Positions 35,199 through 61,440 are shown, counted from the stretch's first letter. The stretch is 64,000 bases of DNA from Escherichia coli (GCF_001677475.2 NZ_CP015229.1); one strand, 5' to 3'. Numbers and translations are program-made. The notes: a model not told the origin generated them from the letters alone.

Positions 35199-36536
35199 TT
35201 AATCTTTGCTTATTGGTGCATCTAAGGGATACGGGTTTTTATGCAGCCTGTTGTAATTCAGCGCATACATGGCGGTGATGACCATCAGGGTGACAAATGA
35301 CCACATAACCTCTTTCGCCCCGGACCCCACAACGGCCCAAATGCAGTAGAGGAAGGCAATGGTAGTAACAGCCAGATATGCCGGGCGTGCTTTACCAAAG
35401 TGACCGTGGCCGAGCAGCAGTAACGCCGCACAGGTGTAAAGATATGGCACCAGTGTAAAGATGACCGAGACGGAAGAAACCAGACCGAACTCTTTGGTCG
35501 CGTTTGGTGAAATGCTGCTGAGCTGGAAGATGGTCATCAAAATACCGACGATAATCAGCCCCGCCACTGGCGTACCCGCTTTATTTACACGGGCAAAAAT
35601 CGGTGGGAACAGTCCGTCATCGGCAGCGGCTTTCGCCGTTTGACCCGCCAGCAATGTCCAGCCGCCCAGTGAACCTAAGCAACCCGCAGCTGCGCAGAAG
35701 GAAACAATGGCCCCGGCGGTGTCACCCAACGCCATCCGTGCGGCATCACCGAATGGCGAGGCAGAAACGCGCAGTGCGGCATTAGGGATCATCCCCATAA
35801 TCGCGGTGGTGGAGAGTACATAGCAAACGGCGGCAATCAATACCCCACCAATGGTGGCGATAGGGACATTGCGTTTCGGGTTTTTCACCACACCTGCGGC
35901 AACGGAGGCACTTTCCACACCGATGAACGACCACAGCGTAACGTTAAGGGTACTTTGAATTGCACCGAAGGTGCCCAGGCCGCTGACGTTCCATGCCGCC
36001 ATATAGGTTTCACCACGGAACCAGAACCAGCCAAATACGGCAATCCCGACGATGGGGATCAGCGCCAGCACGGTGGCAACGGCCTGCACGCGGGTGATCA
36101 TTTTCGGACCGACAATGTTCAGCAGGACGAAGATCCACAGCACCACGACGCAGGTGATGGTTAATACCAGTGGATCTTTCAGAATCGGGAAGAAGTAACT
36201 TAAATATCCTACGCCAATGACCACCATGGCGATATTGCCGATCCAGCAGGCCAGCCAGTAGAGGACGTTGGTTTGATAACCGAGAAACGGGCCAAAGCAG
36301 CGGCGGGCGTAAGCGTAAGAACCACCAGGACTTGGGTCGAGGAACGACATTTTGGCGTATACCATCGAGAGCCCCAGCGCACCGATAATCGTCACCAACC
36401 ATCCATAAATGGCAATCCCGCCAGTGGAGGCCAGGTTTGCAGGTAACAGAAAAACACCTGACCCCATAATATTCCCCGACACCATCAGGGTGACGGGGAT
36501 TAAGCCCACTTTGTGAGCATCAGCATCCGAAGACAT
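35199..36536 (-). CDS. adiC: Arginine:agmatine antiporter (APC family)
   Basis: 445-aa 12-[34 protein letters not shown]... Confidence 0.93.
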
Positions 36537-36672
36537 AATTAAACTCCTGCGAAGGCGAGCTTCGTGACAATAAATTACGTCATATCATACGCCTGCATTC
36601 GATAGTTGAATTATTATCGACCGGGTTATCGCTGATGCCGTTATTAATATAGCTCTTCGTTAAGGTTAAAAA

Positions 36673-37434
36673 TCAGGCGACAGTGCGTTCTCTGTGCTGA
36701 CTAACATAATGCAGCGGCGTCATACCGTAGAAGTCTTTAAAGACAGAAATAAAGTACGACGTACTGTTGTAGCCGCAGGACTGTGATACCTGAGAGATAT
36801 TTTTACCGTCCATCATTAATTCATTTACGGCATAACGCATGCGGCAGGTGGTGATTATTTGGCTATAACTGGTGTTTTCGCTTTTCAGCTTTTTCTTTAA
36901 CAGACTCGGGCTAAGACATAAACAACTGGCTACCATACTAAGATTCCAGTCTTTGTGGATATCGCTTTCAATAATTTGATAAACGCTGTCACTTACACAA
37001 TTACGTAACATATACATCATTAATGAAAGGAATTTTTTACTGTCGAGAAAACGGGATAGCACAGTGAATAATAATGCGCGTGTTCGTTCCTTTTCTGACT
37101 CAGTTTCAGCGGGCATCATGCTGTGTTGCGCGGCAACGCGAAAGACGTCTGGCGTCAGGCATGGCAGGGTGAGGATGGGCGTAGCACTACGTTGCCATAC
37201 TGGTATTTGCGAGAGATCTTTATTCAGAAACCGGAGGTAATCTTTGATGATGTCGTGACTAATATGAGCAACCAAAGTGTTATTAAGAGAGGAGACGTCG
37301 ATAATATTATTTTCACAATTTAATAACGCCATATGGTTAGCTTTAAGGCTAATAGGTTCTTTCCCATTCACCCTTATCCAGACATCTTTTTCAGTCAATA
37401 AAACAATACAAGGTTGGTCGCTGCAAATCCTCAT
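36673..37434 (-). CDS. adiY: AraC-family transcriptional activator AdiY
   Basis: 253-aa ORF with C-terminal AraC-type HTH. Confidence 0.88.
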   Translation of the reverse strand: MRICSDQPCIVLLTEKDVWIRVNGKEPISLKANHMALLNCENNIIDVSSLNNTLVAHISHDIIKDYLRFLNKDLSQIPVWQRSATPILTLPCLTPDVFRVAAQHSMMPAETESEKERTRALLFTVLSRFLDSKKFLSLMMYMLRNCVSDSVYQIIESDIHKDWNLSMVASCLCLSPSLLKKKLKSENTSYSQIITTCRMRYAVNELMMDGKNISQVSQSCGYNSTSYFISVFKDFYGMTPLHYVSQHRERTVA

Positions 37435-37758
37435 ACATGTACTCCTGAGTGCGAATAAAAGACCAGTTCTCGCTAAAGCAAAGCGATACCGGGAAATGGT
37501 TATATAATTGTATGATGAATATAAACATGCATAAAAATAACGAGTTTTACTAATATTACAAATTTTTATAGTAATTTCTCATGTACATATTTTTTTACAG
37601 GGTAAATAACAGGCAAAAAAAAGCGCGGGGTGGGGCCGCGCAAAAAGTATGACATTTTTGTTTGCAGCAATTTTTATGAAAACGTTGCCATACTCAAAAG
37701 GCCTAAGGCCAGGCGGCGTAATGTTATTTAAACAATTACGCCTTCAGCGGAATAGTGG

Positions 37759-40026
37759 TTACGCTTTCACACACATAACGTGGTAAATACCGTCAATAAT
37801 TTCAGTCCCTTCAGTTTCGTGTTCAAATCCAGGGAAATGATGATCCCAGGATTGCAGCGAGCGTAAATAACTTACTTGCGGACTGTTTTTATCGCCGAAG
37901 TTTTCACCAGACAGCAGCATCGGGATTCCTGGCGGATACGGGATAACTGAGTTTGCCGCAATGCGTCCTGGCAGATTTTCAATGGATACCAGTTCGACAT
38001 TGTTGTCGACAATTGCGTTGTACGCTTCTCGCGGGGTGATTTCCGCCACCGGCAGGCCGGAATAGGCTTCGTTCAACCGTGCGCCAGGGTTGTTTTCTTT
38101 CAGCCAGGCAAACATGGTGTCACCCAGATCGTGAATCCCCATGTTCGCGTAAGTGTCAGGATATTGTTCAACAAGTTCCGGCATCACCTGCGCCAGCGGT
38201 GTGTTGGCGTCATAGTGGCGTTTGAAGGAGCAAAGGGTGTTAACCAGAGTCCCCCATTTCCCACGGGTTACGCCCATAGAGAACAGGAACATAATTTGGA
38301 AGTCAGTGGTGCGGGTAGGCACAATGCCGTGGCGACCAAGCCAGGCAGTGACCAGCGCCGCCGGAACACCGGTTTCTTCCAGTTCACCATCTTCACCCAT
38401 TCCCGGAGCAAGGATGCTGACTTTAATTGGGTCGAGCATACTCCAGTTATCCGGAATATCTTTGAAGCCGTGCCAGCTTTCGCCCGGATGCATTACCCAG
38501 CAGTCCTGAACGGTGGTCAGCAGTTTGGTTGGTGCGTCAGCAAAGTCATAGGTTTTGCCGGTTTGTGGGTCGGTGACGACTTCTTTGTTCCACGGTTTGA
38601 AGAACCAGCTACCGTCAGCGGTGAACTCTTTATACAGCCGCGCCATCGCCTGACGGAAATCAACCGCTTCGTCGATCACTTCCTGCGTCAGTGACAGGCC
38701 GCTGTTGCCGTCCATCATCGACACCGCCACGTCGTTGGATGCGCAGATGGCATACAGCGGGGAGGTGGTGGCATGCATCATGTAGGCCTGGTTGAAGCGG
38801 GAGAAGTTAATCGCCCCACGACCTTCACGTACATGAATATAAGAAGCCTGTGAAAGCGCATTCAGCAGTTTGTGGGTGGAATGGGTGGCGAAAACAGTAG
38901 GACCGTTGTGATCGCCAGGTTCGCCGCGCATGGCATAGTGATCGGCATAGATCGGGTTGAAACGTGCATAGCCGTACCAGGCTTCGTCAAAGTGCAGACG
39001 ATCGGAGGTTTTTTCCAGCAGATCCTGCGCTTCTTTAGCGTTATAACACACGCCGTCATAGGTGCAGTTGGTCACCACGCAGTAAGACGGTTTTTGCCCG
39101 GCTTTGTCTTTGGTCAGCGGGCTTTCACTGATTTTCTTCTGCAAGGTTTCAGGTTGCATTTCTTGCGGATAGATTGGCCCGATAATGCCGTAGCGGTTGC
39201 GGCTTGGCACCATGTAGACCGGTTTCGCGCCTGTCAGCATCAAGCCTTGTTCGATGGATTTATGGCAGTTACGGTCAACGACCACGACATCGTTATCGGT
39301 CATGCAAGCCTGCATGATGGTGCGGTTAGAGCCGGAAGTACCGACGACTACCGACCAGGAGCGATCGGCACCAAATACGCGTGCGGCATATTTTTCGCTT
39401 TCGCCAAATGCGCCAGTATGGTCAAGCAAAGAACCGAGGGAAGTTCGTTCGATGCCCATGTCGGTGCGGAACAGGTTTTCACCATAGTAGTCATGGTAGA
39501 AACGTCCGGCGGGTGTTTTGGTAAAACCAACGCCACCCTGGTGGCCTGGCGCTGCCCAGGAATATTCATGGATGTCGCTATATTTCATCAGCGCGCTGAA
39601 CAGTGGCGGCAACAGTTGCTGGCGGTAGCGGGTCATCGCGGCAACGGCGCGTCCGGCGATAAAGTCGGCGGTATCTTCCAGAATCCAGGCGAATTCATCG
39701 ACAAGCTCCAGCAGATCCCGGTCCATTGCGGCGAGGGCTTTTTCCCGATCGCCCAACAGGAAGACCGGCACGTTTTGTTGGCGCTCATGAAGCTTACCGA
39801 TCAATTGTCTGACGTTTTGATGTTCGTCCGGATGTTCCATTTGATAGCTGAACATCAGGCAGTCAATGGCTTCGTTTGAAGAGAGAATGGCAAAACCATC
39901 ATCAAAGGAGGTGGATTTAATCACGGTAACATTTTGCTGGCTTAAAGCATCTGCCAGACGCTCAACGGCGTTACCGACCCAGGTGTCTTGATGGAGAAAC
40001 TCGCTTTCAACAATTAATACTTTCAT
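37759..40026 (-). CDS. adiA: Biodegradative (acid-inducible) arginine decarboxylase
   Basis: 755 aa from the ATG at 40026 (MKVLIVESEFLHQDTW...); PLP-lysine motif FATHSTHKLL. Confidence 0.93.
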   Translation of the reverse strand: MKVLIVESEFLHQDTWVGNAVERLADALSQQNVTVIKSTSFDDGFAILSSNEAIDCLMFSYQMEHPDEHQNVRQLIGKLHERQQNVPVFLLGDREKALAAMDRDLLELVDEFAWILEDTADFIAGRAVAAMTRYRQQLLPPLFSALMKYSDIHEYSWAAPGHQGGVGFTKTPAGRFYHDYYGENLFRTDMGIERTSLGSLLDHTGAFGESEKYAARVFGADRSWSVVVGTSGSNRTIMQACMTDNDVVVVDRNCHKSIEQGLMLTGAKPVYMVPSRNRYGIIGPIYPQEMQPETLQKKISESPLTKDKAGQKPSYCVVTNCTYDGVCYNAKEAQDLLEKTSDRLHFDEAWYGYARFNPIYADHYAMRGEPGDHNGPTVFATHSTHKLLNALSQASYIHVREGRGAINFSRFNQAYMMHATTSPLYAICASNDVAVSMMDGNSGLSLTQEVIDEAVDFRQAMARLYKEFTADGSWFFKPWNKEVVTDPQTGKTYDFADAPTKLLTTVQDCWVMHPGESWHGFKDIPDNWSMLDPIKVSILAPGMGEDGELEETGVPAALVTAWLGRHGIVPTRTTDFQIMFLFSMGVTRGKWGTLVNTLCSFKRHYDANTPLAQVMPELVEQYPDTYANMGIHDLGDTMFAWLKENNPGARLNEAYSGLPVAEITPREAYNAIVDNNVELVSIENLPGRIAANSVIPYPPGIPMLLSGENFGDKNSPQVSYLRSLQSWDHHFPGFEHETEGTEIIDGIYHVMCVKA

Positions 40027-40224
40027 CATTGCTTACCCGGTTATGAAGGAATCTTCGTTGCGGGCAAGTATCTTCCGGCCTTTTCGGGCTGTAAAGCGCG
40101 TGAAAAATAAACATTTTTGAAATATTTGTTTTTATAAACAATATGTTATGTGATTATTTTAAATTATTTTCACTGCTTATTATCGACGGCTAAACTATTT
40201 TTTTGGCTGATACTGATATCGTCT

Positions 40225-41133
40225 TTAGCCGGGAAACGTCTGGCGGCGCTGTTGGCTAAGTTTGCGGTATTGTTGCGGTGACATGCCGACATATTTGCCG
40301 AACGTGCTGTAAAAACGGCTACTCGAACGAAAGCCTGCCGTCAGGGCAATATCGAGAATACTTTTATCGGTATCGCTCAGTAACGCGCGAACGTGGTTGA
40401 TGCGCATCGCGGTTATGTACTGTTTCATCGTCAATTGCATGACCCGCTGGAATATCCCCATTGCATAGTTGGCGTTAAGTTTGACGTGCTCAGCCACATC
40501 GTTGATGGTCAGCGCCTGATCATAGTTTTCGGCAATAAAGCCCAGCATCTGGCTAACATAAAATTGCGCATGGCGCGAGACGCTGTTTTTATGTGTGCGC
40601 GAGGTTTTATTGACCAGAATCGGTTCCCAGCCAGAGAGGCTAAATCGCTTGAGCATCAGGCCAATTTCATCAATGGCGAGCTGGCGAATTTGCTCGTTCG
40701 GACTGTTCAATTCCTGCTGCCAGCGGCGCACTTCAAACGGACTAAGTTGCTGTGTCGCCAGTGATTTGATCACCATACCGTGAGTGACGTGGTTAATCAG
40801 GTCTTTATCCAGCGGCCAGGAGAGAAACAGATGCATCGGCAGATTAAAAATCGCCATGCTCTGACAGGTTCCGGTATCTGTTAGTTGGTGCGGTGTACAG
40901 GCCCAGAACAGCGTGATATGACCCTGATTGATATTCACTTTTTCATTGTTGATCAGATATTCCACATCGCCATCGAAAGGCACATTCACTTCGACCTGAC
41001 CATGCCAGTGGCTGGTGGGCATGATATGCGGTGCGCGAAACTCAATCTCCATCCGCTGGTATTCCGAATACAGCGACAGCGGGCTGCGGGTCTGTTTTTC
41101 GTCACTGCTGCACATAAACGTATCTGTATTCAT
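40225..41133 (-). CDS. melR: AraC-family melibiose operon activator MelR
   Basis: 302-aa ORF; divergent from melA. Confidence 0.9.
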   Translation of the reverse strand: MNTDTFMCSSDEKQTRSPLSLYSEYQRMEIEFRAPHIMPTSHWHGQVEVNVPFDGDVEYLINNEKVNINQGHITLFWACTPHQLTDTGTCQSMAIFNLPMHLFLSWPLDKDLINHVTHGMVIKSLATQQLSPFEVRRWQQELNSPNEQIRQLAIDEIGLMLKRFSLSGWEPILVNKTSRTHKNSVSRHAQFYVSQMLGFIAENYDQALTINDVAEHVKLNANYAMGIFQRVMQLTMKQYITAMRINHVRALLSDTDKSILDIALTAGFRSSSRFYSTFGKYVGMSPQQYRKLSQQRRQTFPG

Positions 41134-41415
41134 GGAGGACTCTCTTTCCTAGAATATCAGAATTATGGCAGGAGTGAGGGAGGATGACTGCGAGTGGGAG
41201 CACGGTTTTCACCCTCTTTTCAGAGAGGCGAGGGGACTGTCCGAGCATCATGAGGCCGAAAACTCTGCTTTTCAGGTAATTTATTCCCATAAACTCAGAT
41301 TTACTGCTGCTTCACGCAGGATCTGAGTTTATGGGAATGCTCAACCTGGAAGCCGGAGGTTTTCTGCAGATTCGCCTGCCATGATGAAGTTATTCAAGCA
41401 AGCCAGGAGATCTGC
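41134..41415. promoter_or_regulatory. melR/melAB divergent promoter region
   Basis: 282-bp spacer between divergent melR and melA; known to carry MelR and CRP sites. Individual sites not resolved here. Confidence 0.5.
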
Positions 41416-42771
41416 ATGATGTCTGCACCCAAAATTACATTTATCGGCGCTGGTTCGACGATTTTCGTTAAAAATATTCTTGGTGATGTGTTCCATCGCG
41501 AGGCGCTGAAAACGGCGCATATTGCCCTGATGGACATTGACCCCACCCGCCTGGAAGAGTCGCATATTGTGGTGCGTAAGCTGATGGATTCAGCAGGGGC
41601 CAGCGGCAAAATCACCTGCCACACCCAACAGAAAGAAGCCTTACAGGATGCCGATTTTGTCGTGGTGGCATTTCAGATTGGCGGTTATGAACCTTGCACG
41701 GTGACTGATTTCGAGGTCTGTAAGCGGCATGGTCTGGAACAAACCATTGCCGATACGTTGGGGCCGGGCGGTATTATGCGCGCGCTACGTACCATTCCGC
41801 ATCTGTGGCAAATTTGCGAGGACATGACGGAAGTCTGCCCCGATGCCACCATGCTCAACTACGTTAACCCAATGGCGATGAATACCTGGGCGATGTATGC
41901 CCGCTATCCGCATATCAAACAGGTCGGGCTGTGCCATTCGGTGCAGGGAACGGCGGAAGAGCTGGCGCGTGATCTCAATATCGACCCGGCTACGCTGCGT
42001 TACCGTTGCGCAGGTATCAACCATATGGCGTTTTACCTGGAACTGGAGCGTAAAACCGCCGACGGCAGTTACGTGAATCTCTACCCGGAACTGCTGGCGG
42101 CTTATGAAGCAGGGCAGGCACCGAAGCCGAATATTCATGGCAATACTCGCTGCCAGAATATTGTGCGCTACGAAATGTTCAAAAAGCTGGGCTACTTCGT
42201 CACGGAATCGTCAGAACATTTTGCTGAGTACACGCCGTGGTTTATTAAGCCAGGTCGTGAGGATTTGATTGAGCGTTATAAAGTACCGCTGGATGAGTAC
42301 CCGAAACGCTGCGTCGAGCAGCTGGCGAACTGGCATAAAGAGCTGGAGGAGTATAAGAACGCCTCCCGGATTGATATTAAACCGTCACGGGAATATGCCA
42401 GCACAATCATGAACGCTATCTGGACTGGCGAGCCGAGTGTGATTTACGGCAACGTCCGTAACGATGGTTTGATTGATAACCTGCCACAAGGATGTTGCGT
42501 GGAAGTAGCCTGTCTGGTTGATGCTAATGGCATTCAGCCGACCAAAGTCGGTACGCTACCTTCGCATCTGGCCGCTCTGATGCAAACCAACATCAACGTA
42601 CAGACGCTGCTGACCGAAGCCATTCTTACGGAAAATCGCGACCGTGTTTACCACGCCGCAATGATGGACCCGCATACTGCCGCCGTGCTGGGCATTGACG
42701 AAATATATGCTCTTGTTGACGACCTGATTGCCGCCCACGGCGACTGGCTGCCAGGCTGGTTGCACCGTTAA
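41416..42771 (+). CDS. melA: Alpha-galactosidase (NAD/Mn-dependent, GH4)
   Basis: 451-aa ORF MMSAPKITFIGAGSTIF... with Rossmann GxGS motif. Confidence 0.93.
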   Translation: MMSAPKITFIGAGSTIFVKNILGDVFHREALKTAHIALMDIDPTRLEESHIVVRKLMDSAGASGKITCHTQQKEALQDADFVVVAFQIGGYEPCTVTDFEVCKRHGLEQTIADTLGPGGIMRALRTIPHLWQICEDMTEVCPDATMLNYVNPMAMNTWAMYARYPHIKQVGLCHSVQGTAEELARDLNIDPATLRYRCAGINHMAFYLELERKTADGSYVNLYPELLAAYEAGQAPKPNIHGNTRCQNIVRYEMFKKLGYFVTESSEHFAEYTPWFIKPGREDLIERYKVPLDEYPKRCVEQLANWHKELEEYKNASRIDIKPSREYASTIMNAIWTGEPSVIYGNVRNDGLIDNLPQGCCVEVACLVDANGIQPTKVGTLPSHLAALMQTNINVQTLLTEAILTENRDRVYHAAMMDPHTAAVLGIDEIYALVDDLIAAHGDWLPGWLHR

Positions 42772-42873
42772 AACGCGACTAAACGCTACTGCGCCGGGGG
42801 ATTTATTCCGGCGCACACCTCTGACGATACCAATAACAGAAGGCGGGCGTTGGTAACAACGACCCGATACCCT

Positions 42874-44295
42874 ATGAGCATTTCAATGACTACAAAACTC
42901 AGTTATGGATTTGGAGCGTTCGGGAAGGATTTTGCGATCGGCATTGTGTATATGTACCTCATGTATTACTACACCGATGTCGTCGGGCTGTCTGTGGGTT
43001 TGGTCGGTACTTTGTTTCTGGTGGCGAGGATCTGGGATGCTATTAACGATCCGATTATGGGATGGATTGTAAATGCTACGCGATCGCGATGGGGCAAGTT
43101 CAAACCCTGGATCCTGATCGGTACGTTGGCAAACTCTGTAATCTTATTTCTCCTCTTTAGTGCGCATCTGTTTGAAGGTACTACTCAGATTGTCTTTGTT
43201 TGCGTGACCTACATCCTCTGGGGCATGACTTACACCATTATGGATATTCCCTTCTGGTCGCTGGTTCCAACCATAACGCTCGATAAACGTGAGCGCGAAC
43301 AACTGGTTCCTTATCCGCGTTTTTTTGCCAGTCTGGCAGGCTTTGTTACGGCAGGTGTGACGCTACCATTTGTTAATTATGTCGGCGGTGGCGATCGGGG
43401 ATTTGGCTTTCAGATGTTCACTCTGGTACTGATCGCCTTTTTTATTGTTTCAACCATCATCACTCTGCGCAATGTGCATGAAGTCTTTTCGTCAGACAAT
43501 CAACCGTCTGCTGAAGGAAGCCATCTGACACTTAAAGCCATCGTTGCGCTTATTTATAAAAACGATCAGCTTTCATGCCTCTTGGGTATGGCTCTTGCTT
43601 ATAATGTAGCCAGCAATATTATTACCGGCTTTGCTATCTATTATTTCTCATATGTTATCGGTGATGCGGATTTGTTCCCCTATTATCTGTCGTATGCGGG
43701 AGCTGCTAACCTGGTGACGTTAGTATTCTTCCCACGCTTAGTTAAATCATTATCCCGACGCATTTTATGGGCCGGAGCATCTATTCTTCCGGTGTTAAGC
43801 TGTGGTGTTCTCCTGTTAATGGCATTAATGAGCTATCACAACGTCGTCCTCATTGTGATTGCGGGTATCTTGCTGAATGTGGGAACGGCGCTTTTCTGGG
43901 TATTACAGGTCATCATGGTGGCAGATACCGTTGATTACGGTGAATATAAACTGCACGTACGCTGTGAAAGCATCGCTTACTCCGTGCAGACTATGGTGGT
44001 GAAGGGCGGTTCAGCCTTTGCGGCTTTTTTCATTGCGGTTGTGTTAGGGATGATTGGCTATGTACCGAATGTTGAACAGTCTACGCAAGCCCTATTAGGT
44101 ATGCAGTTTATTATGATTGCTCTACCGACTCTGTTTTTCATGATAACGCTGATTCTCTACTTCCGTTTCTATCGCCTCAATGGTGACACGCTGCGCAGGA
44201 TCCAGATCCATCTGCTGGATAAATATCGCAAAGTACCGCCCGAGCCTGTTCATGCTGATATTCCGGTCGGTGCAGTGAGTGATGTGAAAGCCTGA
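42874..44295 (+). CDS. melB: Melibiose:cation symporter
   Basis: ATG at 42874 gives [38 protein letters not shown]...; 12-TM GPH-family transporter. Confidence 0.92.
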
Positions 44296-44318
44296 CGTGG
44301 ACAATAGCTAACGAAAAT

Positions 44319-44416
44319 GGCCTGATGCGATATGTTTATCAGGCCACGTTTTAATACAATGCTTTGGATTTGCAAATTTTGTAGACCGGATAAGGAATTC
44401 ACGCCGCATCCGGCAT
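44319..44416. repeat. BIME: two REP units downstream of melB
   Basis: ggcctgatgcgatatgtttatcaggcc and gaccggataaggaattcacgccgcatccggc. Confidence 0.75.
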
Positions 44417-44433
44417 CAACAAAACGCACGTTG

Positions 44434-46832: not shown

Positions 46833-46872
46833 AGCTTCCAGCCTGTAACTCTGTATTTGTTATTCGAAAATG

Positions 46873-46900: not shown

Positions 46901-46909
46901 AAAGTGCAT

Positions 46910-51578: not shown

Positions 51579-51589
51579 GCGAGGGTAAA

Positions 51590-51862
51590 ATGGAAATACG
51601 CGAAGGCCACAATAAATTTTACATAAATGACGAACAAGGCAAGCAAATCGCTGAAATTGTCTTTGTGCCGACCGGAGAGAATTTAGCGATTATCGAACAT
51701 ACCGATGTCGATGAAAGCCTGAAAGGGCAAGGGATTGGTAAACAGCTGGTTGCGAAAGTCGTGGAAAAAATGCGTCGGGAAAAACGAAAAATTATCCCAC
51801 TATGCCCATTTGCGAAACACGAATTTGATAAAACGCGGGAGTATGATGATATTCGCAGTTGA
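51590..51862 (+). CDS. yjdJ: GNAT-family acetyltransferase YjdJ
   Basis: 90-aa ORF with GNAT core motif QGIGKQLV. Confidence 0.8.
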
Positions 51863-52088
51863 TGGGAGAGTACAGATTCACGATATTTTTCATGCTCTCC
51901 GCGGTGTGATGCAGGAGAGCATCTGAAGGGTAGGGGGATGCACAAAGAATGGGCAGAGAGCGCGTTTTTTTGTCCCAAGTCATCCCCTTTACTGAGCAAA
52001 AAAAAGAATATCTCCTATATGAGAATCATCAATCGGGGTTAATAAGTTTTGCGTCCCCAGAGCGTTTAAAATTGATAGGAGTCATATT

Positions 52089-52385
52089 ATGGAAGGTAAA
52101 AACAAGTTCAATACTTATGTTGTTTCTTTTGATTATCCATCATCTTATTCCTCAGTGTTCTTAAGGTTAAGATCATTGATGTATGATATGAATTTCTCCT
52201 CTATCGTGGCTGATGAATATGGGATACCACGACAATTGAATGAAAATTCCTTCGCAATAACGACATCGTTAGCCGCAAGTGAAATCGAAGATTTAATCAG
52301 GCTTAAATGCTTAGACTTACCGGATATTGATTTTGACCTCAACATTATGACAGTTGATGACTATTTCCGTCAGTTTTACAAGTAG
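52089..52385 (+). CDS. ghoS: Type V antitoxin GhoS (sequence-specific endoribonuclease)
   Basis: 98-aa ORF MEGKNKFNTYVVSFDYPSSYSSVFLRLRSL..., directly upstream of ghoT. Confidence 0.85.
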   Translation: MEGKNKFNTYVVSFDYPSSYSSVFLRLRSLMYDMNFSSIVADEYGIPRQLNENSFAITTSLAASEIEDLIRLKCLDLPDIDFDLNIMTVDDYFRQFYK

Positions 52386-52412
52386 CCAGGAAGGATAAGA
52401 AGAACATAAAAA

Positions 52413-52586
52413 ATGGCACTATTCTCTAAAATATTAATTTTTTATGTGATTGGTGTGAACATATCCTTTGTCATTATCTGGTTTATCTCACATGAGAAAA
52501 CACATATTCGTTTACTTAGTGCATTCCTGGTCGGAATAACCTGGCCAATGAGTCTGCCTGTGGCATTACTTTTTTCTCTCTTTTAG
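52413..52586 (+). CDS. ghoT: Type V toxin GhoT (57-aa membrane-lytic peptide); absent from the ORF track
   Basis: Hand translation of atg gca cta ttc ... ttt tag gives MALFSKILIFYVIGVNISFVIIWFISHEKTHIRLLSAFLVGITWPMSLPVALLFSLF (two TM helices), 27 bp downstream of ghoS. Confidence 0.85.
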   Translation: MALFSKILIFYVIGVNISFVIIWFISHEKTHIRLLSAFLVGITWPMSLPVALLFSLF

Positions 52587-52704
52587 GAGCTGTAGTTGAG
52601 TGGACCCGCTGGTTATCTTGAAACGAAGCGTCTCTCCTCAAAACTGGATTTGCGGAACGACGAACGAAGCAGTCGCCTGACTGCTTCGTTCATTAAAGTG
52701 AAAT

Positions 52705-54222
52705 TTATTTCTGTGGGCGCATCGCCGGGAAGAGAATAACGTCGCGAATAGTATGACTGTTTGTAAACAGCATAATCATTCGGTCGATACCAATACCCAG
52801 ACCAGCGGTTGGCGGCAGACCATATTCCAGCGCAGTCACGTAATCTTCGTCATAGAACATGGCTTCGTCGTCACCTGCAGCTTTAGCGTTAACCTGTTCC
52901 TGGAAACGTTCAGCCTGATCTTCTGCATCGTTTAATTCGCTAAAACCATTACCGATTTCACGACCACCGATGAAGAATTCAAAACGGTCGGTGATTTCCG
53001 GGTTAACATCATTACGGCGCGCCAGCGGGGACACTTCTGCCGGATATTCCGTAATAAAGGTTGGCTGAATCAGATGTGCTTCTGCCACTTCATCAAAGAT
53101 CTCCGTAACAATACGTCCCAGACCCCAGCTTTTCTCTACCGTAATTCCGATAGATTCAGCTAATGCTTTAGCGGCATCAAAATTATCCAGGTCGGCCATA
53201 TCGGTTTCTGGACGATATTTTTTGATTGCTTCGCGCATGGTGAGTTTTTCAAACGGTTTGCCGAAATCAAACACATGCTCGCCATAAGTGACTTTAGTGG
53301 TACCCAGAACCTCTTGTGCCAGGGTGCGGAACAGTGACTCTGTCAGTTCAATCAAATCGTGGTAATCCGCATACGCCATGTAGAGTTCCATCATTGTGAA
53401 CTCAGGATTATGGCGAACAGAAATGCCTTCATTACGGAAGTTACGGTTGATTTCGAATACCCGTTCAAAACCGCCTACAACCAGACGTTTCAGATACAGC
53501 TCCGGCGCAATACGCAGGTACATATCTAAATCCAGAGCGTTATGATGGGTAATAAACGGGCGAGCAGATGCCCCACCTGGAATTACCTGCATCATCGGGG
53601 TTTCTACTTCCATAAAGCCGCGCGCGACCATGAACTGGCGGATAGCGGCCAGAATTTTTGAACGGACAACAAACGTTTGACGGGATTTATCGTTAGCGAT
53701 GAGGTCCAGATAACGTTGACGATAACGGACTTCCTGATCCTGCAGACCATGGAATTTATCTGGTAAAGGACGTAGTGCTTTTGTCAGCAGGCGCAACTCA
53801 GTACAGTGAATGGAAAGCTCACCCGTTTGCGTCTTAAACAGCGTACCGCGGGCACCGATAATGTCACCCAGATCCCATTTTTTAAACTGATCGTTATAAA
53901 CACCTTCTGGCAGGCTATCTCGTGCGACGTACAGTTGAATACGGCCACCGACATCCTGCAACGTTACAAAGGAGGCTTTCCCCATGATACGACGGGTCAT
54001 CATTCGGCCAGCAACCGAGACTTCAATGTTTAAGGATTCCAGTTCCTGGTTATCCTTCGCATCAAACTCTTCGTGCAACTGGTCAGAGGTATGGTCGCGG
54101 CGAAAATCATTGGGAAACGCCACACCTTGCTGACGTAGTGCCGCCAGCTTTTCGCGGCGATTTCTCAGTTCATCGTTAAAATCAATAGCCTCATTGGCTC
54201 CCCGTGTTTCTCGTTCAGACAT
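52705..54222 (-). CDS. lysU: Lysyl-tRNA synthetase, inducible isozyme
   Basis: ATG at 54222 gives MSE(R/Q)[30 protein letters not shown]... (505 aa); class II aaRS motifs. Confidence 0.92.
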
Positions 54223-54458
54223 TTTGGTTCCTCTAAATCCAGCTTTCAATTTAGCGTAGATAAAGAGACAGATCGGTACACTGTATTATCTGCCTCGACT
54301 ATTAATAACTCAGTTTATCTTATCGAAACTAACGCTTACCTCAAGTTGATATCACTAATAAATAACCATCAAAATGGTTTAAATGACTTATTAATCTCGA
54401 TTTATTAGTGTGATAAACTAAAAGTTAGTTTATTCATAACCAATTGTTTTTACGACAG

Positions 54459-55916
54459 TTAATCGTTGCTCTCCTGTATCATATTTGTCGGCGTGCTAAA
54501 CAGATAACGGGCAGCAAAGGCCAATACCACGATGATCGCGACACAAGCCAACGTCCACTCTCCCATCTGAGAAAAGAATCGCTGGTAAGCTGCAATTGCC
54601 ATTCCGCTAATTTGCGACTCTGTCGTCTGCTGTGCCACGACGCCTGCCAGCCAGTTGGCGACCGCGCCTGTTGCCAGCATATAAATACCGGTTAATACGC
54701 CAGACATTTTCAGACGCGTGATTTGCGCAATCGCCACCGGGTCAATAAAGAGTTCGGCAAAGCCCATTAGCGCCAGCCCGGATATCATCACGCCCATTGA
54801 CGCTTGACCGTCAGCCGCTGCATGTCGGGCATCAAATGCCAGCAACATAAAGCCACAAGCCATCAGCAATAAGCCAAAGGCAAACCTCAGCCAGACGCGC
54901 AATGTTGAGTTGCCGTGGCTTTCTGGCGACGCCAGCCAGGCCAGAACAACCCCAGCGAGCATCACCGCAATTGCGTTCACTGACTGGAATAGTGCAGTAG
55001 GTACTTCAATATTGAATGCCTGACGATTCACAAAGCGATCGATAAACAAACTGATGGTACTGCCGCCCTGTTGTGCCAGTACCCAGAACAACGTCCCGAC
55101 AAACATCAACAATACAATTTGCCAAAGAGCACGGCGGTGTTCGGGGAATTTGATCATCATGCGGGCAATGATTTGTGCGGCAATGAGGCAAACGATCGCC
55201 AGCAAATATCCCGACCAGTCGTTCTCCAGCAGCAGGGTAAAAAATACTGGGGCTAAACAGAGCATCACCACTAACCAGCTCCATACTGGTAAGGCAAATT
55301 TCACGCTAGTGAGCGCTTTCTTATCCATACTACGCGTGGACTGGAAATGACGATGACCGCTTAAGAAAATCAACAAACCGATAAACATGCCGCCACCCGC
55401 AAGGGCAAAGCCAACATGCCATCCATACCACTGAGCAGCCAGGCCGCAGGCGATGGGGGCGGCGATAGAACCGATATTGCCCGCAGCATACAGCAGCGAA
55501 AAACCGCCATCACGTCGATGATCGTTCTCGTCGTAGAGCTCGCCAAGCAAACAGCTGATGTTTGATTTGAATAAACCGTAGCCACAAATAATGATTGCCA
55601 GCGCCAGATACAGGCTAAAGGTTGAATTTGTATCAATGCCCAGCACTACATGGCCAAGGGTCATTAACAGCGCGCCGGCAATTACCGCAGTACGATTGCC
55701 GAGCAGGCGGTCGGCAAGCCAGCCGCCGAGAATAGGGGTAACGTAAACCAGAGATGCATATGCGCTGAACAGGCTGATGGCATGGTTATCATCAAAACCA
55801 AGCTGATGGGTGAGATAGAGAATGAGCAAGGCACGCATGCCGTAAAAACTGAAGTACTCCCAGATTTGGATCGCCACGATATAGTATATCGCGCGCGGCT
55901 GTGAGGGTGTTTTCAT
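54459..55916 (-). CDS. dtpC: Dipeptide/tripeptide:proton symporter DtpC (YjdL), POT family
   Basis: 485-aa 14-[41 protein letters not shown]... Confidence 0.92.
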
Positions 55917-55931
55917 GTGTTCTCCTTATGA

Positions 55932-55963
55932 GCAAAAAAGGGAAGTGGCAAGCCACTTCCCTT
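55932..55963 (-). terminator. Rho-independent terminator of the cadBA operon
   Basis: aagggaagtgg-caag-ccacttccctt stem followed on the minus strand by TTTTTTGC. Confidence 0.8.
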
Positions 55964-55974
55964 GTACGAGCTAA

Positions 55975-58122
55975 TTATTTTTTGCTTTCTTCTTTCAATA
56001 CTTTAACGGTATAGCGGCCATCAGCCTGACGGTATGCACCGTGAATATCGGTTTCAAAGCCCGGATAGTGAGCGCCGATTTCACACAGCATCTGCAGGAA
56101 CTCCAGAACCGGACGGCTTTCTTCGGTGATCATTTCTCCCGGCATTACCAGAGGAACTCCCGGCGGATACGGAAGGATCATATTGGCGTTAATACGACCG
56201 ACCATTTCGTCGAGGTAAACTTCTTCGGTCATACCGTGCAGCTCTTTCTGGAACGCAGCATACGGAGTCATTACCATCGTCGGCAGCACTTCAAATGCGC
56301 GATACATCAGATCCGGCAGATTGTGGTGAACAATCAGTTTGTGGATATTCTGAGCCAGTTCCTGAATACGCATGTTTTCATAGAATTCAGGATCTTCACG
56401 ATACAGAGACGGCAGCATGTTTTTCACACGCAGGTTCAGGTCGAACGCACGTTTGAAGTCAGTCAGAGCACGCAGCAGGCTCAGTGCTTTGGTCTTATCG
56501 ATACCGATGCTGAACAGGAACAGCAGGTTATACGGACCGGTTTTCTCAACAACGATGCCATGTTCGTCGAGGTATTTCGCCACGATGCTGGCCGGAATAC
56601 CAAAGTCGCTCATGGTGCCGTCTTTTTCCATCCCCGGAGTCAGCAGGGTGACTTTGATCGGGTCAAGATACATGTGCTCGTTATCGATGTTTTTGAAGCC
56701 GTGCCAGGTGCTGTCAGAACGCAGCGGCCAGCATTCAGTCGTATCGATATGATCCGGCTGCCAAACATCAAAGAACCAGCCATCAGATTCCGTTCTCAGA
56801 CGTTTGATCTCTTTACGGAATTTGATCGCACGTTCAATGGAACCGTTGATCAGACGCTTACCAGCATTACCTTTCATCATCGCCGCTGCGGTTTCAGTGG
56901 ACGCCACGATACCGTAGTGCGGAGAAGTGGTGGTGTGCATCATGTAGGCTTCGTTAAAGGTTTCTTCGTTTACGTCACCTTTAACGTGGATCATGGAAGC
57001 CTGAGAGAACGCCGCCAGCAGTTTGTGAGTAGACTGGGTTTCGTAAATCACTTTCCCTTCTACACGGCCACCGCTCATACCGCATTTACCTTCGTAAATC
57101 GGTGAGAAGTTGGTGTAAGGCACCCACGCGGAGTCAAAGTGGATGGATTTCACATCCAGTGTTTTCTTGATGAAGTCGGTGTTGTACAGCAGACCATCAT
57201 AGGTAGAGTTGGTAATTACAGCATGTACCGGCCAGGTTGCGTTTGGTGTTTCTTTCACGCGCTTAGCAATGGTAGCGTGCTGGAATTCACTCTGTGGGAT
57301 ACCACCAAGAATACCGTAAGCGTTACGGGTCGGGCGGAAATAGATTGGCGTAACATCGCTCATCATCATCAGGTGGGTCAGCGATTTGTGGCAGTTACGG
57401 TCAATCAGAATGGTGCTGCCTGCCGGAGCAGAGTACATACCAACAATTTTGTTCGCAGTGGAAGTACCGTTGGTCACCATGTAGCTGCGGTCTGCGTTAA
57501 AGACGCGAGCGATATACTGTTCTGCTTCTTTGTGTGGACCACTGTGATCCAGCAGAGAACCCAGTTCAGATACTGAAATGGAAATATCAGATTTCATGGT
57601 GTTCGGACCAAAGAAATCATAGAACAGGCTACCTACCGGGCTTTTCTGGAATGCAGTACCGCCCATGTGACCAGGAGTACAGAAAGTATATTTACCTTCA
57701 CGAACATATTTAAACAGTGCTTTGGTCAGCGGAGGCAGAATAGTGTTGATATATTCGTCAGTGGTCTGCTTGATCTTGTTAGCAATATCTTCAGCAGCAC
57801 CCAGCGCATATTCAAAGAAGCTAATCTGTAAACGCAGGTCATTCAGGCTTACATCGAGAGTGGAATACGTATTAGCGAACGCGTACAACGGCAGGTTCTC
57901 GTTCATTTTGCTAATTTCTTCGCACAGCTCGAGATTATATTTATCCCAGTCAAAAATAACGCCGCACAGACGCGCATTGTTTTCGATCAGTTTTAATAAG
58001 TCGTCACGGTCGTTCGGGTAAACAATCTGGAAGTTCAGACGTTCAAGCGCGCGATGAAGTTCACGGATGGGTTCTTCTTTAAAATAAACCCCCATGTGAT
58101 TCAATATTGCAATAACGTTCAT
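55975..58122 (-). CDS. cadA: Inducible lysine decarboxylase
   Basis: 715 aa from the ATG at 58122 (MNVIAILNHMGVYFKEEPIRELH...); PLP-lysine motif YETQSTHKLL; ORF-track start at 58161 is an extension. Confidence 0.95.
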   Translation of the reverse strand: MNVIAILNHMGVYFKEEPIRELHRALERLNFQIVYPNDRDDLLKLIENNARLCGVIFDWDKYNLELCEEISKMNENLPLYAFANTYSTLDVSLNDLRLQISFFEYALGAAEDIANKIKQTTDEYINTILPPLTKALFKYVREGKYTFCTPGHMGGTAFQKSPVGSLFYDFFGPNTMKSDISISVSELGSLLDHSGPHKEAEQYIARVFNADRSYMVTNGTSTANKIVGMYSAPAGSTILIDRNCHKSLTHLMMMSDVTPIYFRPTRNAYGILGGIPQSEFQHATIAKRVKETPNATWPVHAVITNSTYDGLLYNTDFIKKTLDVKSIHFDSAWVPYTNFSPIYEGKCGMSGGRVEGKVIYETQSTHKLLAAFSQASMIHVKGDVNEETFNEAYMMHTTTSPHYGIVASTETAAAMMKGNAGKRLINGSIERAIKFRKEIKRLRTESDGWFFDVWQPDHIDTTECWPLRSDSTWHGFKNIDNEHMYLDPIKVTLLTPGMEKDGTMSDFGIPASIVAKYLDEHGIVVEKTGPYNLLFLFSIGIDKTKALSLLRALTDFKRAFDLNLRVKNMLPSLYREDPEFYENMRIQELAQNIHKLIVHHNLPDLMYRAFEVLPTMVMTPYAAFQKELHGMTEEVYLDEMVGRINANMILPYPPGVPLVMPGEMITEESRPVLEFLQMLCEIGAHYPGFETDIHGAYRQADGRYTVKVLKEESKK

Positions 58123-58201
58123 AGTCATATCTCCAGGTAAAAAAGGCCCCTCCCAACACATGGGACAAAATGAAAGGAGGAGCCTCGGAAAATACTTTTA
58201 A

Positions 58202-59536
58202 TTAATGTGCGTTAGACGCTGTGTGGTTATCCATTGAGTGACTCTGGCGCTCGTGCATTTTGCGAGCGTAGAACATCAGGATAATCAGGCTGACGATGAA
58301 GGTACCTGCCAGCTCGAAGGAGCTTGCGCCCATTAGCGCGATGAAGCAGAACACGCAACCCAGTACAGAGCAGATCAGGCTGACAAAGTTGCGGATGTTA
58401 ACGCCTTCAAAACGAATCAGGTCAACGCAAGAGTAGAAGTACGGCAGCATAGTCAGCAGTACTGCGATACCGGTCAGTTCACCGAACAGGTCAGATGCTT
58501 TACCACCGGCAGAGTTCATCAGAGTGATGAGGATCATCAGGGCAGTCATTTTCACTGCAGCCAGCAGCAGACCTTTTTTCGGAATACCGTTGCTGTCGAC
58601 TTCACCATAAACTTTCGGGAAGTTACCGTCGTTAGCGGCACGTACACCTGCCTGGCCTACCAACATCATCCAGGAGCCCAGAGAAGTCAGGCACGCAAAG
58701 GCGGTGAATGCAGAAACCAGCGGCGCAGCCCAGTTACCGAGGATAGTTGAAGCACTGATTGCAAACGGAGCACCGGAAGCCGCCATTACAGAAGACGGAT
58801 ACATACCGGAAAGCACCTGAGTCGCAGCGATGTAAACAATACCTGCTAAACCAGTACCCAGCATGGTTGCCAGCGGAACGGTACGTTTCGGGTTTTTAAC
58901 CATACCAGTACTTACAGCTGCGGATTCAACACCCACGAAGGCCCACAGGCAGAGCAGAATACTTTTAATGATCGCATGACCATCGGTGGTATCCGCAGTA
59001 TTCCAGTTAGCAGCATAAGTCGCAGCATCAAACCAATGCCAGCCAACAATAGCTGTCATAACCACAGGAATAAGAACCAGCACCAGACCAATAGTGGTTA
59101 AACGGCTTACCCAGGTACCGCCGAGCATATTTACAAAGGTAAATACCCAGACGATAGCAATACAGGCGATACCCGCCGGAACAGGATCATTTAATACTGG
59201 GAAGAAGGTGGAAAGATAAGATACAGCGGTAATACCAATCGCCAGGTTACCAATCCAGTTAGCATGGTAATAAAGAACACCTGTCTGAAAACCAAATGCA
59301 GGAGAAATTTCTCCGGCATAAGCAATTGGGCCACCTTGTTGCGGGTTTTTTGTTGCCAGTCGGGCATATACATACGCCAGCGACATTGCACCAATAATAG
59401 AGATAATCCAACCCCAGATAGCAATACCACCGATACTTGCTAGGTTCGCAGGTAATAATGCAATACCGCTCCCCATCATATTACCGGCAACAACACCGGT
59501 ACAGGCAAATAGCCCGATCTTCTTGGCAGAACTCAT
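58202..59536 (-). CDS. cadB: Lysine:cadaverine antiporter (APC family)
   Basis: 444-aa ORF MSSAKKIGLFACTGVVAGNMMGSGIALLPANLA... Confidence 0.95.
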   Translation of the reverse strand: MSSAKKIGLFACTGVVAGNMMGSGIALLPANLASIGGIAIWGWIISIIGAMSLAYVYARLATKNPQQGGPIAYAGEISPAFGFQTGVLYYHANWIGNLAIGITAVSYLSTFFPVLNDPVPAGIACIAIVWVFTFVNMLGGTWVSRLTTIGLVLVLIPVVMTAIVGWHWFDAATYAANWNTADTTDGHAIIKSILLCLWAFVGVESAAVSTGMVKNPKRTVPLATMLGTGLAGIVYIAATQVLSGMYPSSVMAASGAPFAISASTILGNWAAPLVSAFTAFACLTSLGSWMMLVGQAGVRAANDGNFPKVYGEVDSNGIPKKGLLLAAVKMTALMILITLMNSAGGKASDLFGELTGIAVLLTMLPYFYSCVDLIRFEGVNIRNFVSLICSVLGCVFCFIALMGASSFELAGTFIVSLIILMFYARKMHERQSHSMDNHTASNAH

Positions 59537-59901
59537 GCTCTTCTCCTAATTTCATTTTTGAATTTGGAGTCCGGGTCATGATGTATAACTATTTCCTGAC
59601 CAGACCAAACTGGCGCTAAGATTACTCACGAAAAAAGGATTAATCCTAAAGATTAGGTGAAATAACACAAAAGTTTCTGTAAGTGAGAACTTGAGGTTTT
59701 TTATTAACACATCAGGATCGCAAGTTGATATCATGAAAAGATAAACATTCAATGTTTACAATAGATTGCGTGACGTCTTCTGGTTAAATTTATGTAATAA
59801 AAATTATGCGGCAAATAAATTGCCGCAACATATTATACCAATAAAAACATACAAAAACTCAACAACAAATATTCCCGGGCATGAATCAACCCGGGATTTG
59901 C
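59537..59901 (-). promoter_or_regulatory. Pcad promoter/operator region
   Basis: 365-bp AT-rich spacer between the cadC stop and cadB start; known to hold the CadC binding sites and H-NS-bound DNA. Site boundaries not resolved. Confidence 0.55.
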
Positions 59902-61440
59902 TTATTCTGAAGCGAGAAATTTGTCGAGATAAGGTACAACATAAGGAACAGAAGTCTGGAATATACCATTTTCAATCCAGTAAAGGGTGTTTGCCCCTGG
60001 GCGTAAATTAAAGGCGGTGAGATATGCATCAGCTGCTTCCCGGTTCATCCCCTTCATTTCATAAACCTTGCCAAGCAACACATAATTTAGCCAGGACATT
60101 TCAAGATCAATGCCAGTATTTATCGCCTGGTAAGACTCATCTGTTTTACCTTTTACCAGAGCACTGACCGCTTTTATTTGATATATAATGGACAGGTTAT
60201 TCAATTCCGGTAGTGTAACAATGTTATTTATTTCTGTGTTCAGTGCTGCTAATTGTTTTTCATCCAAAGGATGTTGAGAATGGCGCACGATATCAACTAA
60301 TGCTTTTTCTGCTCTCGCGTAGGTAAATTCTGGGGATGATTGAACAATCTCACCTAATAATTCACTGGCACGATTCAATGATTTATCATCGCCATGCAGT
60401 AAATAATCATGTGCCTGATAAAAATTAGTTAATAACGCACCACGATGAGGCAAAATTTGCTGGAGCATCTCCTGCATTCGTTGTGGCCACGGTTGGTTTA
60501 ACGCTTTTGATAAACTCTCCAGTAAATCATTTTGAATCGCCAGCTGATTACCGTTAGTGATGACATAACGTTTATCCAGCATGGTTGAACCATCTGCATT
60601 GTCTACCAATTTTACCGACATAAAGCATTGTTGAGCACGGTATTGGCGCTGATTAACAAACGCAATAGATAATGTTTTACCGGAACTGCTCGGTTCATCA
60701 ATGTTGTAGTTGATTTTGTCATGCACCATAAAGGTGGAGAAGGTGTTAAGTGATGTCGCCACCAAATCACCCACACCTATCGCGTAAGAGAGCTGATATG
60801 GGGAACTCCAGCTGTTACAACTCTTATTCACCATATTAATGTCAATATCGCGTGGATTGAGCAAAATACGCGATTTGCTCATCGGAAGACGTGTATCAAG
60901 ACTTGAAAACGCTACCAGTGCTACACAGATACCTAACGACAACAGGAAAAAAAACCATACCCAAAAGGTAGTGAATCGTTTGCTTTTAACTGGGGATTGT
61001 TCAGGTGGCGTTGCGGTGTTTTGAATGTTAAGACTGTGGGAGGGAGAATCTGTGGCAGGAACCGCCTCTGGTATAGGGGGAGGCGAAGATAGCATTATTT
61101 CCTCTCCCTCTTCTTCGCTGTACCAGATAACCGGCACCATTAATTTATAGCCGCGCTTTGGTACAGTAGCGATATAGACAGGACTATCTTCATCATTATC
61201 TTTTAATGACTTACGTAGTTCTGAGATACTCTGCGTCACAACGTGATTGGTGACAATACTTCTCTTCCAGACATTATCGATAAGTTCATCCCTGCTAAGT
61301 ACTTCGCCACTGTGTTGAGCAAAGAAAACCAGAAGATCGATTAATCTCGGCTCAAGGGTAAGTTGACGCCCATTGCGGCTAATTTGGTTTATGGACGGAG
61401 TAACAAGCCATTCGCCAACGCGAACTACAGGTTGTTGCAT
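59902..61440 (-). CDS. cadC: Membrane-integrated ToxR-like transcriptional activator CadC
   Basis: 512-aa ORF MQQPVVRVGEWLVTPSINQISRNGRQLTLEPRLIDLL...; winged-helix N-terminus, one TM helix, periplasmic sensor. Confidence 0.95.
   Translation of the reverse strand: MQQPVVRVGEWLVTPSINQISRNGRQLTLEPRLIDLLVFFAQHSGEVLSRDELIDNVWKRSIVTNHVVTQSISELRKSLKDNDEDSPVYIATVPKRGYKLMVPVIWYSEEEGEEIMLSSPPPIPEAVPATDSPSHSLNIQNTATPPEQSPVKSKRFTTFWVWFFFLLSLGICVALVAFSSLDTRLPMSKSRILLNPRDIDINMVNKSCNSWSSPYQLSYAIGVGDLVATSLNTFSTFMVHDKINYNIDEPSSSGKTLSIAFVNQRQYRAQQCFMSVKLVDNADGSTMLDKRYVITNGNQLAIQNDLLESLSKALNQPWPQRMQEMLQQILPHRGALLTNFYQAHDYLLHGDDKSLNRASELLGEIVQSSPEFTYARAEKALVDIVRHSQHPLDEKQLAALNTEINNIVTLPELNNLSIIYQIKAVSALVKGKTDESYQAINTGIDLEMSWLNYVLLGKVYEMKGMNREAADAYLTAFNLRPGANTLYWIENGIFQTSVPYVVPYLDKFLASE

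Follow-up and report, generated by a model that had tools for sequence, protein, structure and literature searches.

Two of the textbook acid-resistance systems of Escherichia coli are the arginine-dependent AR3, with adiA, adiY and adiC, and AR4, the Cad system, with cadC, cadB and cadA. Both lie in the stretch of E. coli DNA analysed here (GCF_001677475.2, NZ_CP015229.1; 64,000 nucleotides, referred to as the window), where the adi module spans 35199-40026 and the cad module 55975-61440. It is very probable that this part of the window holds two independent, well-characterised systems with anciently paralogous enzymes and transporters, unrelated activators, a resident adi module and a variably placed cad block, and that their proximity is a lineage-specific coincidence.

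In both systems, a cytoplasmic decarboxylase dependent on pyridoxal phosphate (PLP) would use up one proton per substrate, AdiA converting arginine to agmatine and CadA lysine to cadaverine. An exchanger of the APC family, AdiC or CadB, would then trade external substrate for internal amine. Substrate:product exchange is established for E. coli proteins of the AdiC/CadB/PotE group. Each system would be induced at low pH through its own activator, which is a soluble AraC-type protein in the case of AdiY and a membrane-spanning ToxR-like sensor in the case of CadC. Otherwise, H-NS bound to the AT-rich promoter DNA would silence both systems, as described in passages of PMC6257575 and PMC2984483. 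We infer the biochemistry and regulation of adi and cad from the literature; identities, homology, composition, synteny and block boundaries come from the present analysis.

A third E. coli module of the same two families is speF-potE, which encodes an inducible ornithine decarboxylase and a putrescine/ornithine antiporter. SpeF shares 32-33% identity with AdiA and CadA, and PotE 32-33% with AdiC and CadB. The module has no dedicated transcription factor gene, the leader peptide speFL being annotated instead, and the active-site motif of its enzyme is SVHKQQ, compared with STHKLL in AdiA and CadA.

A 22.8-kb query from the span matched 5425 of the 5426 complete E. coli genomes in RefSeq, the best match being 98.9% identical and colinear. 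Gene names in the window follow the RefSeq annotation of this best match, together with open reading frame (ORF) calls. An earlier reading of this DNA, made without database searches (the sequence-only reading), had named both modules, and its gene identities and coordinates proved exact when set against the ORFs and the annotation. The features of the two modules are as follows.

35199-36536, minus strand: adiC, arginine/agmatine antiporter (APC superfamily), 445 amino acids (aa); Pfam AA_permease_2 (4e-49), RefSeq annotation
36673-37434, minus strand: adiY, AraC/XylS-type activator, 253 aa; Pfam HTH_AraC, HTH_18
37759-40026, minus strand: adiA, biodegradative arginine decarboxylase, 755 aa; Pfam OKR_DC_1_N, OKR_DC_1, OKR_DC_1_C; PDB 2VYC
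38863-38880, minus strand: AdiA residues 383-388, S-T-H-K-L-L, the PLP-lysine motif (K386)
40027-40224: AT-rich region upstream of adiA, GC 0.338
55975-58122, minus strand: cadA, inducible lysine decarboxylase, 715 aa; Pfam OKR_DC_1 domains
57016-57033, minus strand: CadA residues 364-369, S-T-H-K-L-L (K367)
58202-59536, minus strand: cadB, lysine/cadaverine antiporter, 444 aa; Pfam AA_permease_2
59537-59901: cadC-cadB intergenic region with the cadBA promoter, GC 0.34
59902-61440, minus strand: cadC, ToxR-like membrane-integrated activator, 512 aa; Pfam Trans_reg_C, CadC_C1

Homology and composition of the two modules

AdiA and CadA share 36% identity over 740 aa (E 1e-163), and AdiC and CadB 38% over 447 aa (E 3e-100). 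The three domains OKR_DC_1_N, OKR_DC_1 and OKR_DC_1_C all score above the gathering threshold in both enzymes, and AA_permease_2 covers the whole of both transporters, which belong to the antiporter group with AdiC, CadB or PotE as their closest members. The S-T-H-K-L-L motif that the sequence-only reading had singled out is present in both enzymes at the positions listed. In an alignment of the five E. coli decarboxylase paralogues, S-x-H-K is invariant in all five, the motif reading STHKML in LdcC and SVHKQQ in SpeF and SpeC. The motif lysine presumably binds PLP, as in solved structures. The window AdiA is matched from end to end by the solved E. coli AdiA (PDB 2VYC), and structures of inducible lysine decarboxylases, such as PDB 3N75, fall into the same family as the window enzymes. 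From these matches, AdiA and CadA are predicted to be decarboxylases with a decameric assembly. The nearest solved structures to CadB are AdiC entries.

To place the enzymes in their family, a profile built from the five E. coli paralogues was searched against 1.84 billion representative proteins, and a neighbour-joining tree with bootstrap was built from 48 full-length members. The AdiA clade, the CadA/LdcC clade (LdcC being 69% identical to CadA) and the ornithine decarboxylase (Odc) clade each received 100% support; branching among the three had less than 40%, with many other lineages lying between them. A first protein search with the antiporter profile brought up nothing beyond close AdiC and PotE orthologues, which helped little in resolving the deep phylogeny. 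Rooted-triplet bootstraps by neighbour-joining gave a star-like split of 41/30/29% for the antiporters and, for the decarboxylases, 72% for AdiA+SpeF and 25% for AdiA+CadA. The pairwise identities are 36% for AdiA-CadA against 32-34% to SpeF/SpeC, and 38% for AdiC-CadB against 32-33% to PotE. The published tree, in the parts of PMC6257575 that deal with it, recognises arginine decarboxylase (Adc), lysine decarboxylase (LdcI/C and LdcA) and Odc groups, leaves their mutual order open, and has Ldc and Adc nearer each other than Odc.

The enzymes are distant paralogues in one family, and likewise the transporters, with a split that long predates the Enterobacteriaceae. The ancient paralogy that had been read from the sequence is thus borne out for decarboxylases and antiporters by their identities and shared Pfam domains. 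The phylogenetic check proposed with it placed AdiA and CadA in separate, strongly supported clades, with weakly supported branching and many other lineages between these, a result close to the refuting outcome named in advance, modules unrelated beyond family level.

The activators differ. No homology between AdiY and CadC was detected by BLASTP, and their Pfam domains are distinct, an AraC-type helix-turn-helix in the former and Trans_reg_C plus CadC_C1 in the latter. AdiY carries the C-terminal double helix-turn-helix (HTH_AraC/HTH_18) of its family. CadC combines an N-terminal OmpR-type winged helix (Trans_reg_C, residues 24-100) with the CadC periplasmic sensor domain (CadC_C1, residues 191-324); a single hydrophobic segment of ~25 residues near position 160 of 512 lies between them and would span the membrane, an architecture that assigns the protein to the ToxR-like group. 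Judged by their sequences, the two regulators are unrelated and were probably recruited separately. A further CadC-like gene, 84% identical to CadC and with no adjacent cadBA, was found in another E. coli sequence (CP028768.1; L092, gene at 10001-11575), where the surrounding island also holds IS66 copies, an autotransporter and an invasin-like gene.

All six adi and cad genes are on the minus strand. In the direction of transcription, the order is adiA-adiY-adiC (enzyme, regulator, transporter) in one module and cadC-cadB-cadA (regulator, transporter, enzyme) in the other. The sequence-only reading had described an opposite internal order; the enzyme and transporter are indeed swapped, but the modules are not mirror images. 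Duplication of a whole three-part cassette fails as an account, since homology does not extend to AdiY and CadC, gene order is not conserved, and adiY occurs, among the 80 AdiA-like loci described below, in Enterobacteriaceae-type adi loci only.

Intergenic GC is 34-38% around adi and 34% between cadC and cadB, which agrees with the AT-rich embedding noted earlier. The feature is not specific to the modules, however, because the dcuB-dcuR (35%) and lysU-dtpC (30.5%) regions are equally AT-rich. Binding of H-NS, observed by gel shift at the adiY, cadBA and cadC promoter regions (PMC2984483), is the accepted explanation of AT-rich control regions. Over 50 ORFs of the window, the GC content at third codon positions (GC3) has a mean of 0.616 and a standard deviation of 0.081. 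The minimum is cadC (GC3 0.388, z = -2.8; GC 0.419), and adiY is a further low outlier (GC3 0.457, z = -2.0; GC 0.415). Also below average are lysU (0.46), cadB (0.488) and cadA (0.54). The compositional scan that had been suggested finds low values for cadC, adiY, lysU and cadB but not for adiA (GC 0.525, GC3 0.59) or adiC (GC 0.543, GC3 0.62), which are compositionally ordinary and show no sign of foreign origin in their composition. GC skew was also considered as a sign of recent insertion and discarded: it is -0.020 for the cad block, +0.032 for adi and +0.022 for the window, values that are uninformative because third-position skews of flanking genes span -0.11 to +0.22.

The cad block, the adi site and the island question

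Comparison with other species shows that the cad genes belong to a larger conserved unit.

52705-61506, minus strand: conserved 8.8-kb block cadC-cadB-cadA-dtpC-lysU; blastn against other species
52705-54222, minus strand: lysU, second lysyl-tRNA synthetase; annotation; GC3 0.46
54459-55916, minus strand: dtpC (yjdL), di/tripeptide permease; annotation
61700-61859, minus strand: C-terminal remnant of a tyrosine recombinase (integrase), ~160 bp, equivalent to K-12 yjdQ
62057-62132, minus strand: tRNA-Phe (pheU), 3' end toward the cad block; ARAGORN, Rfam

Contigs of other species were retrieved through their CadC orthologues, giving six species for comparison with E. coli among them. A PTR2 permease (dtpC) follows cadCBA in five of the six, and a lysyl-tRNA synthetase (lysU) is present in four. 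In blastn, the E. fergusonii contig (L087) aligns with 90.3% identity over exactly 52705-61506 and nowhere else nearby, so that the block runs from the lysU stop codon (52705) to 66 bp upstream of cadC (~61506). The alignments of Raoultella and Pseudescherichia extend over the same limits. GC3 is 0.54 or lower in four of the five block genes, as against the window mean of 0.62.

The flanks of cadCBA differ in all six species, which makes six chromosomal contexts. In E. coli, the block sits between ghoT on one side and the integrase remnant and pheU on the other. In E. fergusonii, it lies between phoH-pgaDCBA-dgcT and serX-ghrA-ycdXY. In Scandinavium, cadCBA is flanked by glyA-hmpA and glnB, the cadCBA-dtpC of Trabulsiella is in yet another context, and the flanks in Raoultella and Pseudescherichia are each distinct again. 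Within E. coli, the block is intact in 5190 of the 5426 complete genomes, ~3-4% being without an intact copy, and a paper on a pathogenicity island, LEE (locus of enterocyte effacement), describes a strain that lacks ~10 kb at pheU including lysU, yjdL and cadABC (PMC3408504).

The adi module behaves differently from the cad block. The order dcuB-fumB-yjdF-(mel)-adiA-adiY-adiC-eptA-basR recurs in E. coli, E. albertii and several Citrobacter, and 5400 of the 5426 complete E. coli genomes (99.5%) carry the module. The adi genes are long-term residents of a site held in common with E. albertii and Citrobacter.

The surroundings of pheU were inspected for traces of an island. The integrase remnant, which PGAP labels 'tyrosine-type recombinase/integrase; frameshifted; incomplete; missing N-terminus' and whose K-12 counterpart is the pseudogene yjdQ (b4654), is situated between cadC and tRNA-Phe, at a distance of ~200 bp from the 3' end of the tRNA. 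The tRNA was the single match in an Rfam scan of 33000-64000. The cadC-pheU spacer, in which no similarity to phages was found, is uninterrupted in just 3704 of the 5426 genomes; the interrupted spacers fit the role of pheU as an island hot spot, and insertion of islands at pheU is documented (PMC3408504). In the E. fergusonii contig, tRNA-Ser(GGA) (serX, 19210-19297) has its 3' end ~450 bp from the lysU end of the block. Both Escherichia placements thus adjoin a tRNA 3' end, but opposite ends of the block face the tRNA. The start of an E. albertii contig (L005) did not reveal an empty site, its first 640 bp being unrelated sequence with no tRNA. A classical tRNA-island origin of the cad block is suggested but not shown.

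The sequence-only reading had offered acquisition as one account of both modules, and a broader form of this idea would make both of them horizontally acquired islands, with AT-richness and H-NS silencing as marks of foreign origin. The cad side agrees with acquisition, given the six contexts, the low GC3 of cadC, lysU and cadB, the differing site or absence in close relatives, and the adjoining tRNA and integrase remnant. For the islands account of both modules one may add that adiY and cadC are AT-rich and H-NS-bound, and that the adi loci of Kluyvera, Hafnia and other genera are without the E. coli flanking genes. On the adi side, the account meets the ordinary composition of adiA and adiC, the site shared by Escherichia and Citrobacter, the near-universal presence of the module in E. 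coli, and flanks in which we found no mobility genes or repeats; AT-rich promoter regions, moreover, are found equally at dcuB-dcuR and lysU-dtpC. We consider it unlikely that both modules are islands.

For the lysine side alone, we tentatively propose something more specific, while giving it somewhat less than an even chance. The 8.8-kb block may be a self-contained 'lysine island' that was inserted independently at different sites in Enterobacteriaceae, two of them within ~0.5 kb of a tRNA 3' end (pheU in E. coli, serX in E. fergusonii). As it has no mobility genes of its own, it would have travelled as cargo of tRNA-targeting elements or through recombination at its sharp boundaries. In a wider sense, decarboxylase and antiporter genes would then be modular parts, paired anew again and again and not co-inherited. 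What has evolved as a unit on the lysine side is the five-gene block, including the peptide permease and the second lysyl-tRNA synthetase.

Enzyme-transporter pairs in other bacteria

One genome per species was scanned for relatives of the decarboxylases, which gave 80 AdiA-like loci with identities from 97% down to 48%, from Proteobacteria, Lentisphaeria, Fusobacteria and other groups. An APC transporter lies within 3.6 kb of the enzyme in 70 of them, upstream in 46 and downstream in 24. Of these partners, 28 are AdiC-like and 21 PotE-like, and another 21 are distant APC proteins (<30% identity). In Vibrionaceae and Shewanella, for example, the AdiA-like enzyme (66-72% identical) has a PotE-like transporter (50-54%) as its partner. 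In Yersinia nurmii and Pantoea, an AdiC of 83-88% identity comes first and is followed by a decarboxylase with just 51-54% identity to AdiA. In Xenorhabdus, adiA directly adjoins adiC. No CadC-like gene was found near the enzyme in any of the 80 loci.

In several loci (L031, L049, L050), a single transporter is shared by two or three paralogous decarboxylases. More generally, L031 (Variovorax), L044, L046, L049, L050 and L078 contain two or three decarboxylases, Adc-like with Odc-like or others, along with one or two APC transporters; in the Variovorax locus, three enzymes and a single PotE-like transporter follow directly on one another.

The adjacency of enzyme and transporter is ancient and near-universal, and the partners, their order and the regulators have been repeatedly reassorted. 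Such pairs resemble interchangeable parts, not fixed cassettes. These observations bear on the idea that an ancestral decarboxylase plus antiporter cassette was duplicated as a unit to give adi, cad and speF-potE, with regulators and gene order changing later. Both components are paralogous, their adjacency recurs in 70 of the 80 loci across several phyla, in both families the Adi and Cad members resemble each other slightly more than they do SpeF/PotE, and in the relevant part of PMC6257575 Ldc and Adc are nearer each other than Odc, all of which speaks for a unit duplication. The triplet bootstraps are uninformative on this point, and present-day pairings cross subfamilies, since AdiA-like enzymes occur with PotE-like or distant APC transporters, in varying order and in clusters with several decarboxylases to one transporter. 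Such a co-duplication of the enzyme-transporter pair is possible but unproven, and we rate it as rather improbable, if a serious candidate.

Proximity of the modules, neighbouring genes and known systems

The nearest edges of the modules, the adiA start at 40026 and the cadA end at 55975, are 15.9 kb apart, so that they are near each other as had been stated, if closer than the ~20 kb given in the sequence-only reading. By our own arithmetic, the chance that any pair of three modules (adi, cad, speF-potE) falls within 20 kb in ~4.9 Mb is ~2-3%, which is suggestive but not compelling.

Proximity alone, with this figure, speaks for a local tandem or segmental duplication at the site, into which the mel/fum/dcu genes would have been inserted later. 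The identities of 36-38% imply a split far older than the genus, however, and the regulators are unrelated. In E. fergusonii, the cad block is at pga/serX, away from adi, and the other species compared place cad elsewhere again. Among the 80 AdiA-like loci, none has a cad gene within 10 kb, although this is a weak test, as the spacing in E. coli is itself 16 kb. Local duplication at this site is already effectively refuted, and we regard it as extremely improbable; the view of the proximity as a relic of duplication is accordingly not upheld.

The closeness of adi and cad is best read as lineage-specific, because the cad block sits in different contexts in different species, and not as a relic of local duplication, E. 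fergusonii being the sole direct test. In the E. coli lineage, the roving lysine block (cadCBA-dtpC-lysU) would have landed 3' of tRNA-Phe, a side prone to islands. Several points weigh against this picture. The integrase remnant is outside the conserved block limits and, pheU being a general island hot spot, may belong to another element. A search for a direct repeat of the tRNA-Phe 3' end at the lysU end of the block gave no copy within 3 mismatches, and ungapped matches near lysU were at best as good as expected by chance. The block may have been translocated out of the E. coli site instead of having arrived there. Finally, the slightly greater closeness of Adi and Cad in both families, as seen in sequence identities, mildly favours an old co-duplication.

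The genes between adi and cad are mel, yjdF, fumB, dcuB, dcuRS, yjdIJ, ghoST, lysU and dtpC; those outside the cad block are arranged as follows.

40225-41133, minus strand: melR; RefSeq annotation
41416-42771, plus strand: melA; RefSeq annotation
42874-44295, plus strand: melB; RefSeq annotation
40236-44436: variable melR-melA-melB insert in the adiA-yjdF interval
between melB and yjdI, minus strand: yjdF, fumB, dcuB, dcuR, dcuS; RefSeq annotation
between dcuS and lysU: yjdI, yjdJ, ghoS, ghoT (ghoT on the plus strand); RefSeq annotation

The whole mel segment (40236-44436) is missing from E. albertii (L005) and from four Citrobacter loci (L006, L007, L010, L023), and melB alone (42772-44436) is cleanly missing from a divergent 'E. 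coli' (L015, 92-94% identical to the window) and from two further Citrobacter loci (L008, L009). The mel genes between the modules thus make up a variable insert in their own right. GC is lower in melB (0.46) than in melA (0.527).

The region from dcuS to lysU (51168-52704) is AT-rich (GC ~0.40) and carries yjdI and yjdJ as well as ghoS-ghoT, a toxin-antitoxin pair. The homology shared with E. albertii ends at 51862, right after yjdJ, and ghoST may be a member of the variable region and not of the core. Elsewhere in the window, 14333-25166 contains co-directional minus-strand ORFs of high GC (0.59-0.63) and GC3 (0.70-0.76); this is the strongest compositional deviation of the window, in the direction opposite to that of cadC and adiY. 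The source lineage of the window has no close relative among the 5426 complete genomes, any segment tested reaching a ceiling of ~99.0-99.2% identity. Plasmid carriage of the modules was considered and rejected. At least nine E. coli 'plasmid' records match adi and cad (including NZ_CP134663.1, NZ_CP141089.1 and NZ_OL790696.1), with near-chromosomal spacing where both positions are listed. The PLSDB records among the matches listed range from 0.09 to 4.9 Mb and are most likely mislabelled chromosome pieces.

The variable placement of the cad block and the interchangeable character of the enzyme-transporter pairs both bear on the gain of acid-resistance capacity, and on its loss as in Shigella-like lineages. 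They also caution against reading gene proximity as evidence of duplication.

Set beside known systems, the cad block resembles the islands at pheU (LEE and other pathogenicity islands) in lying 3' of the tRNA gene with an integrase fragment in between; it differs from them in having neither a flanking direct repeat nor an intact mobility gene, and in limits that exclude the integrase remnant. Our neighbour-joining tree reproduces the supported Adc, LdcI/LdcC and Odc groups and the deep ambiguity reported by Carriel et al. (2018) for the wing-domain AAT-fold lysine, arginine and ornithine decarboxylases; in the sections of that paper (PMC6257575) on which this comparison draws, we found no report of a shifting cad block location or of quantified transporter partner-swapping around Adc-type enzymes. 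Compared with AR3, the window has the same genes, order and flanks with no substantive difference, and its sequence differs by ~1% from the nearest complete E. coli genome. Compared with AR4, it has the same genes in the same order and a CadC of ToxR-like architecture, and the unit conserved across species exceeds the textbook cadCBA by dtpC (five of six species) and lysU (four of six). The adi and cad genes of the window are the textbook AR3 and AR4 systems and nothing new in kind; that picture is modestly refined by the mobility of cadCBA-dtpC-lysU at block level and by the partner-swapping measured here.

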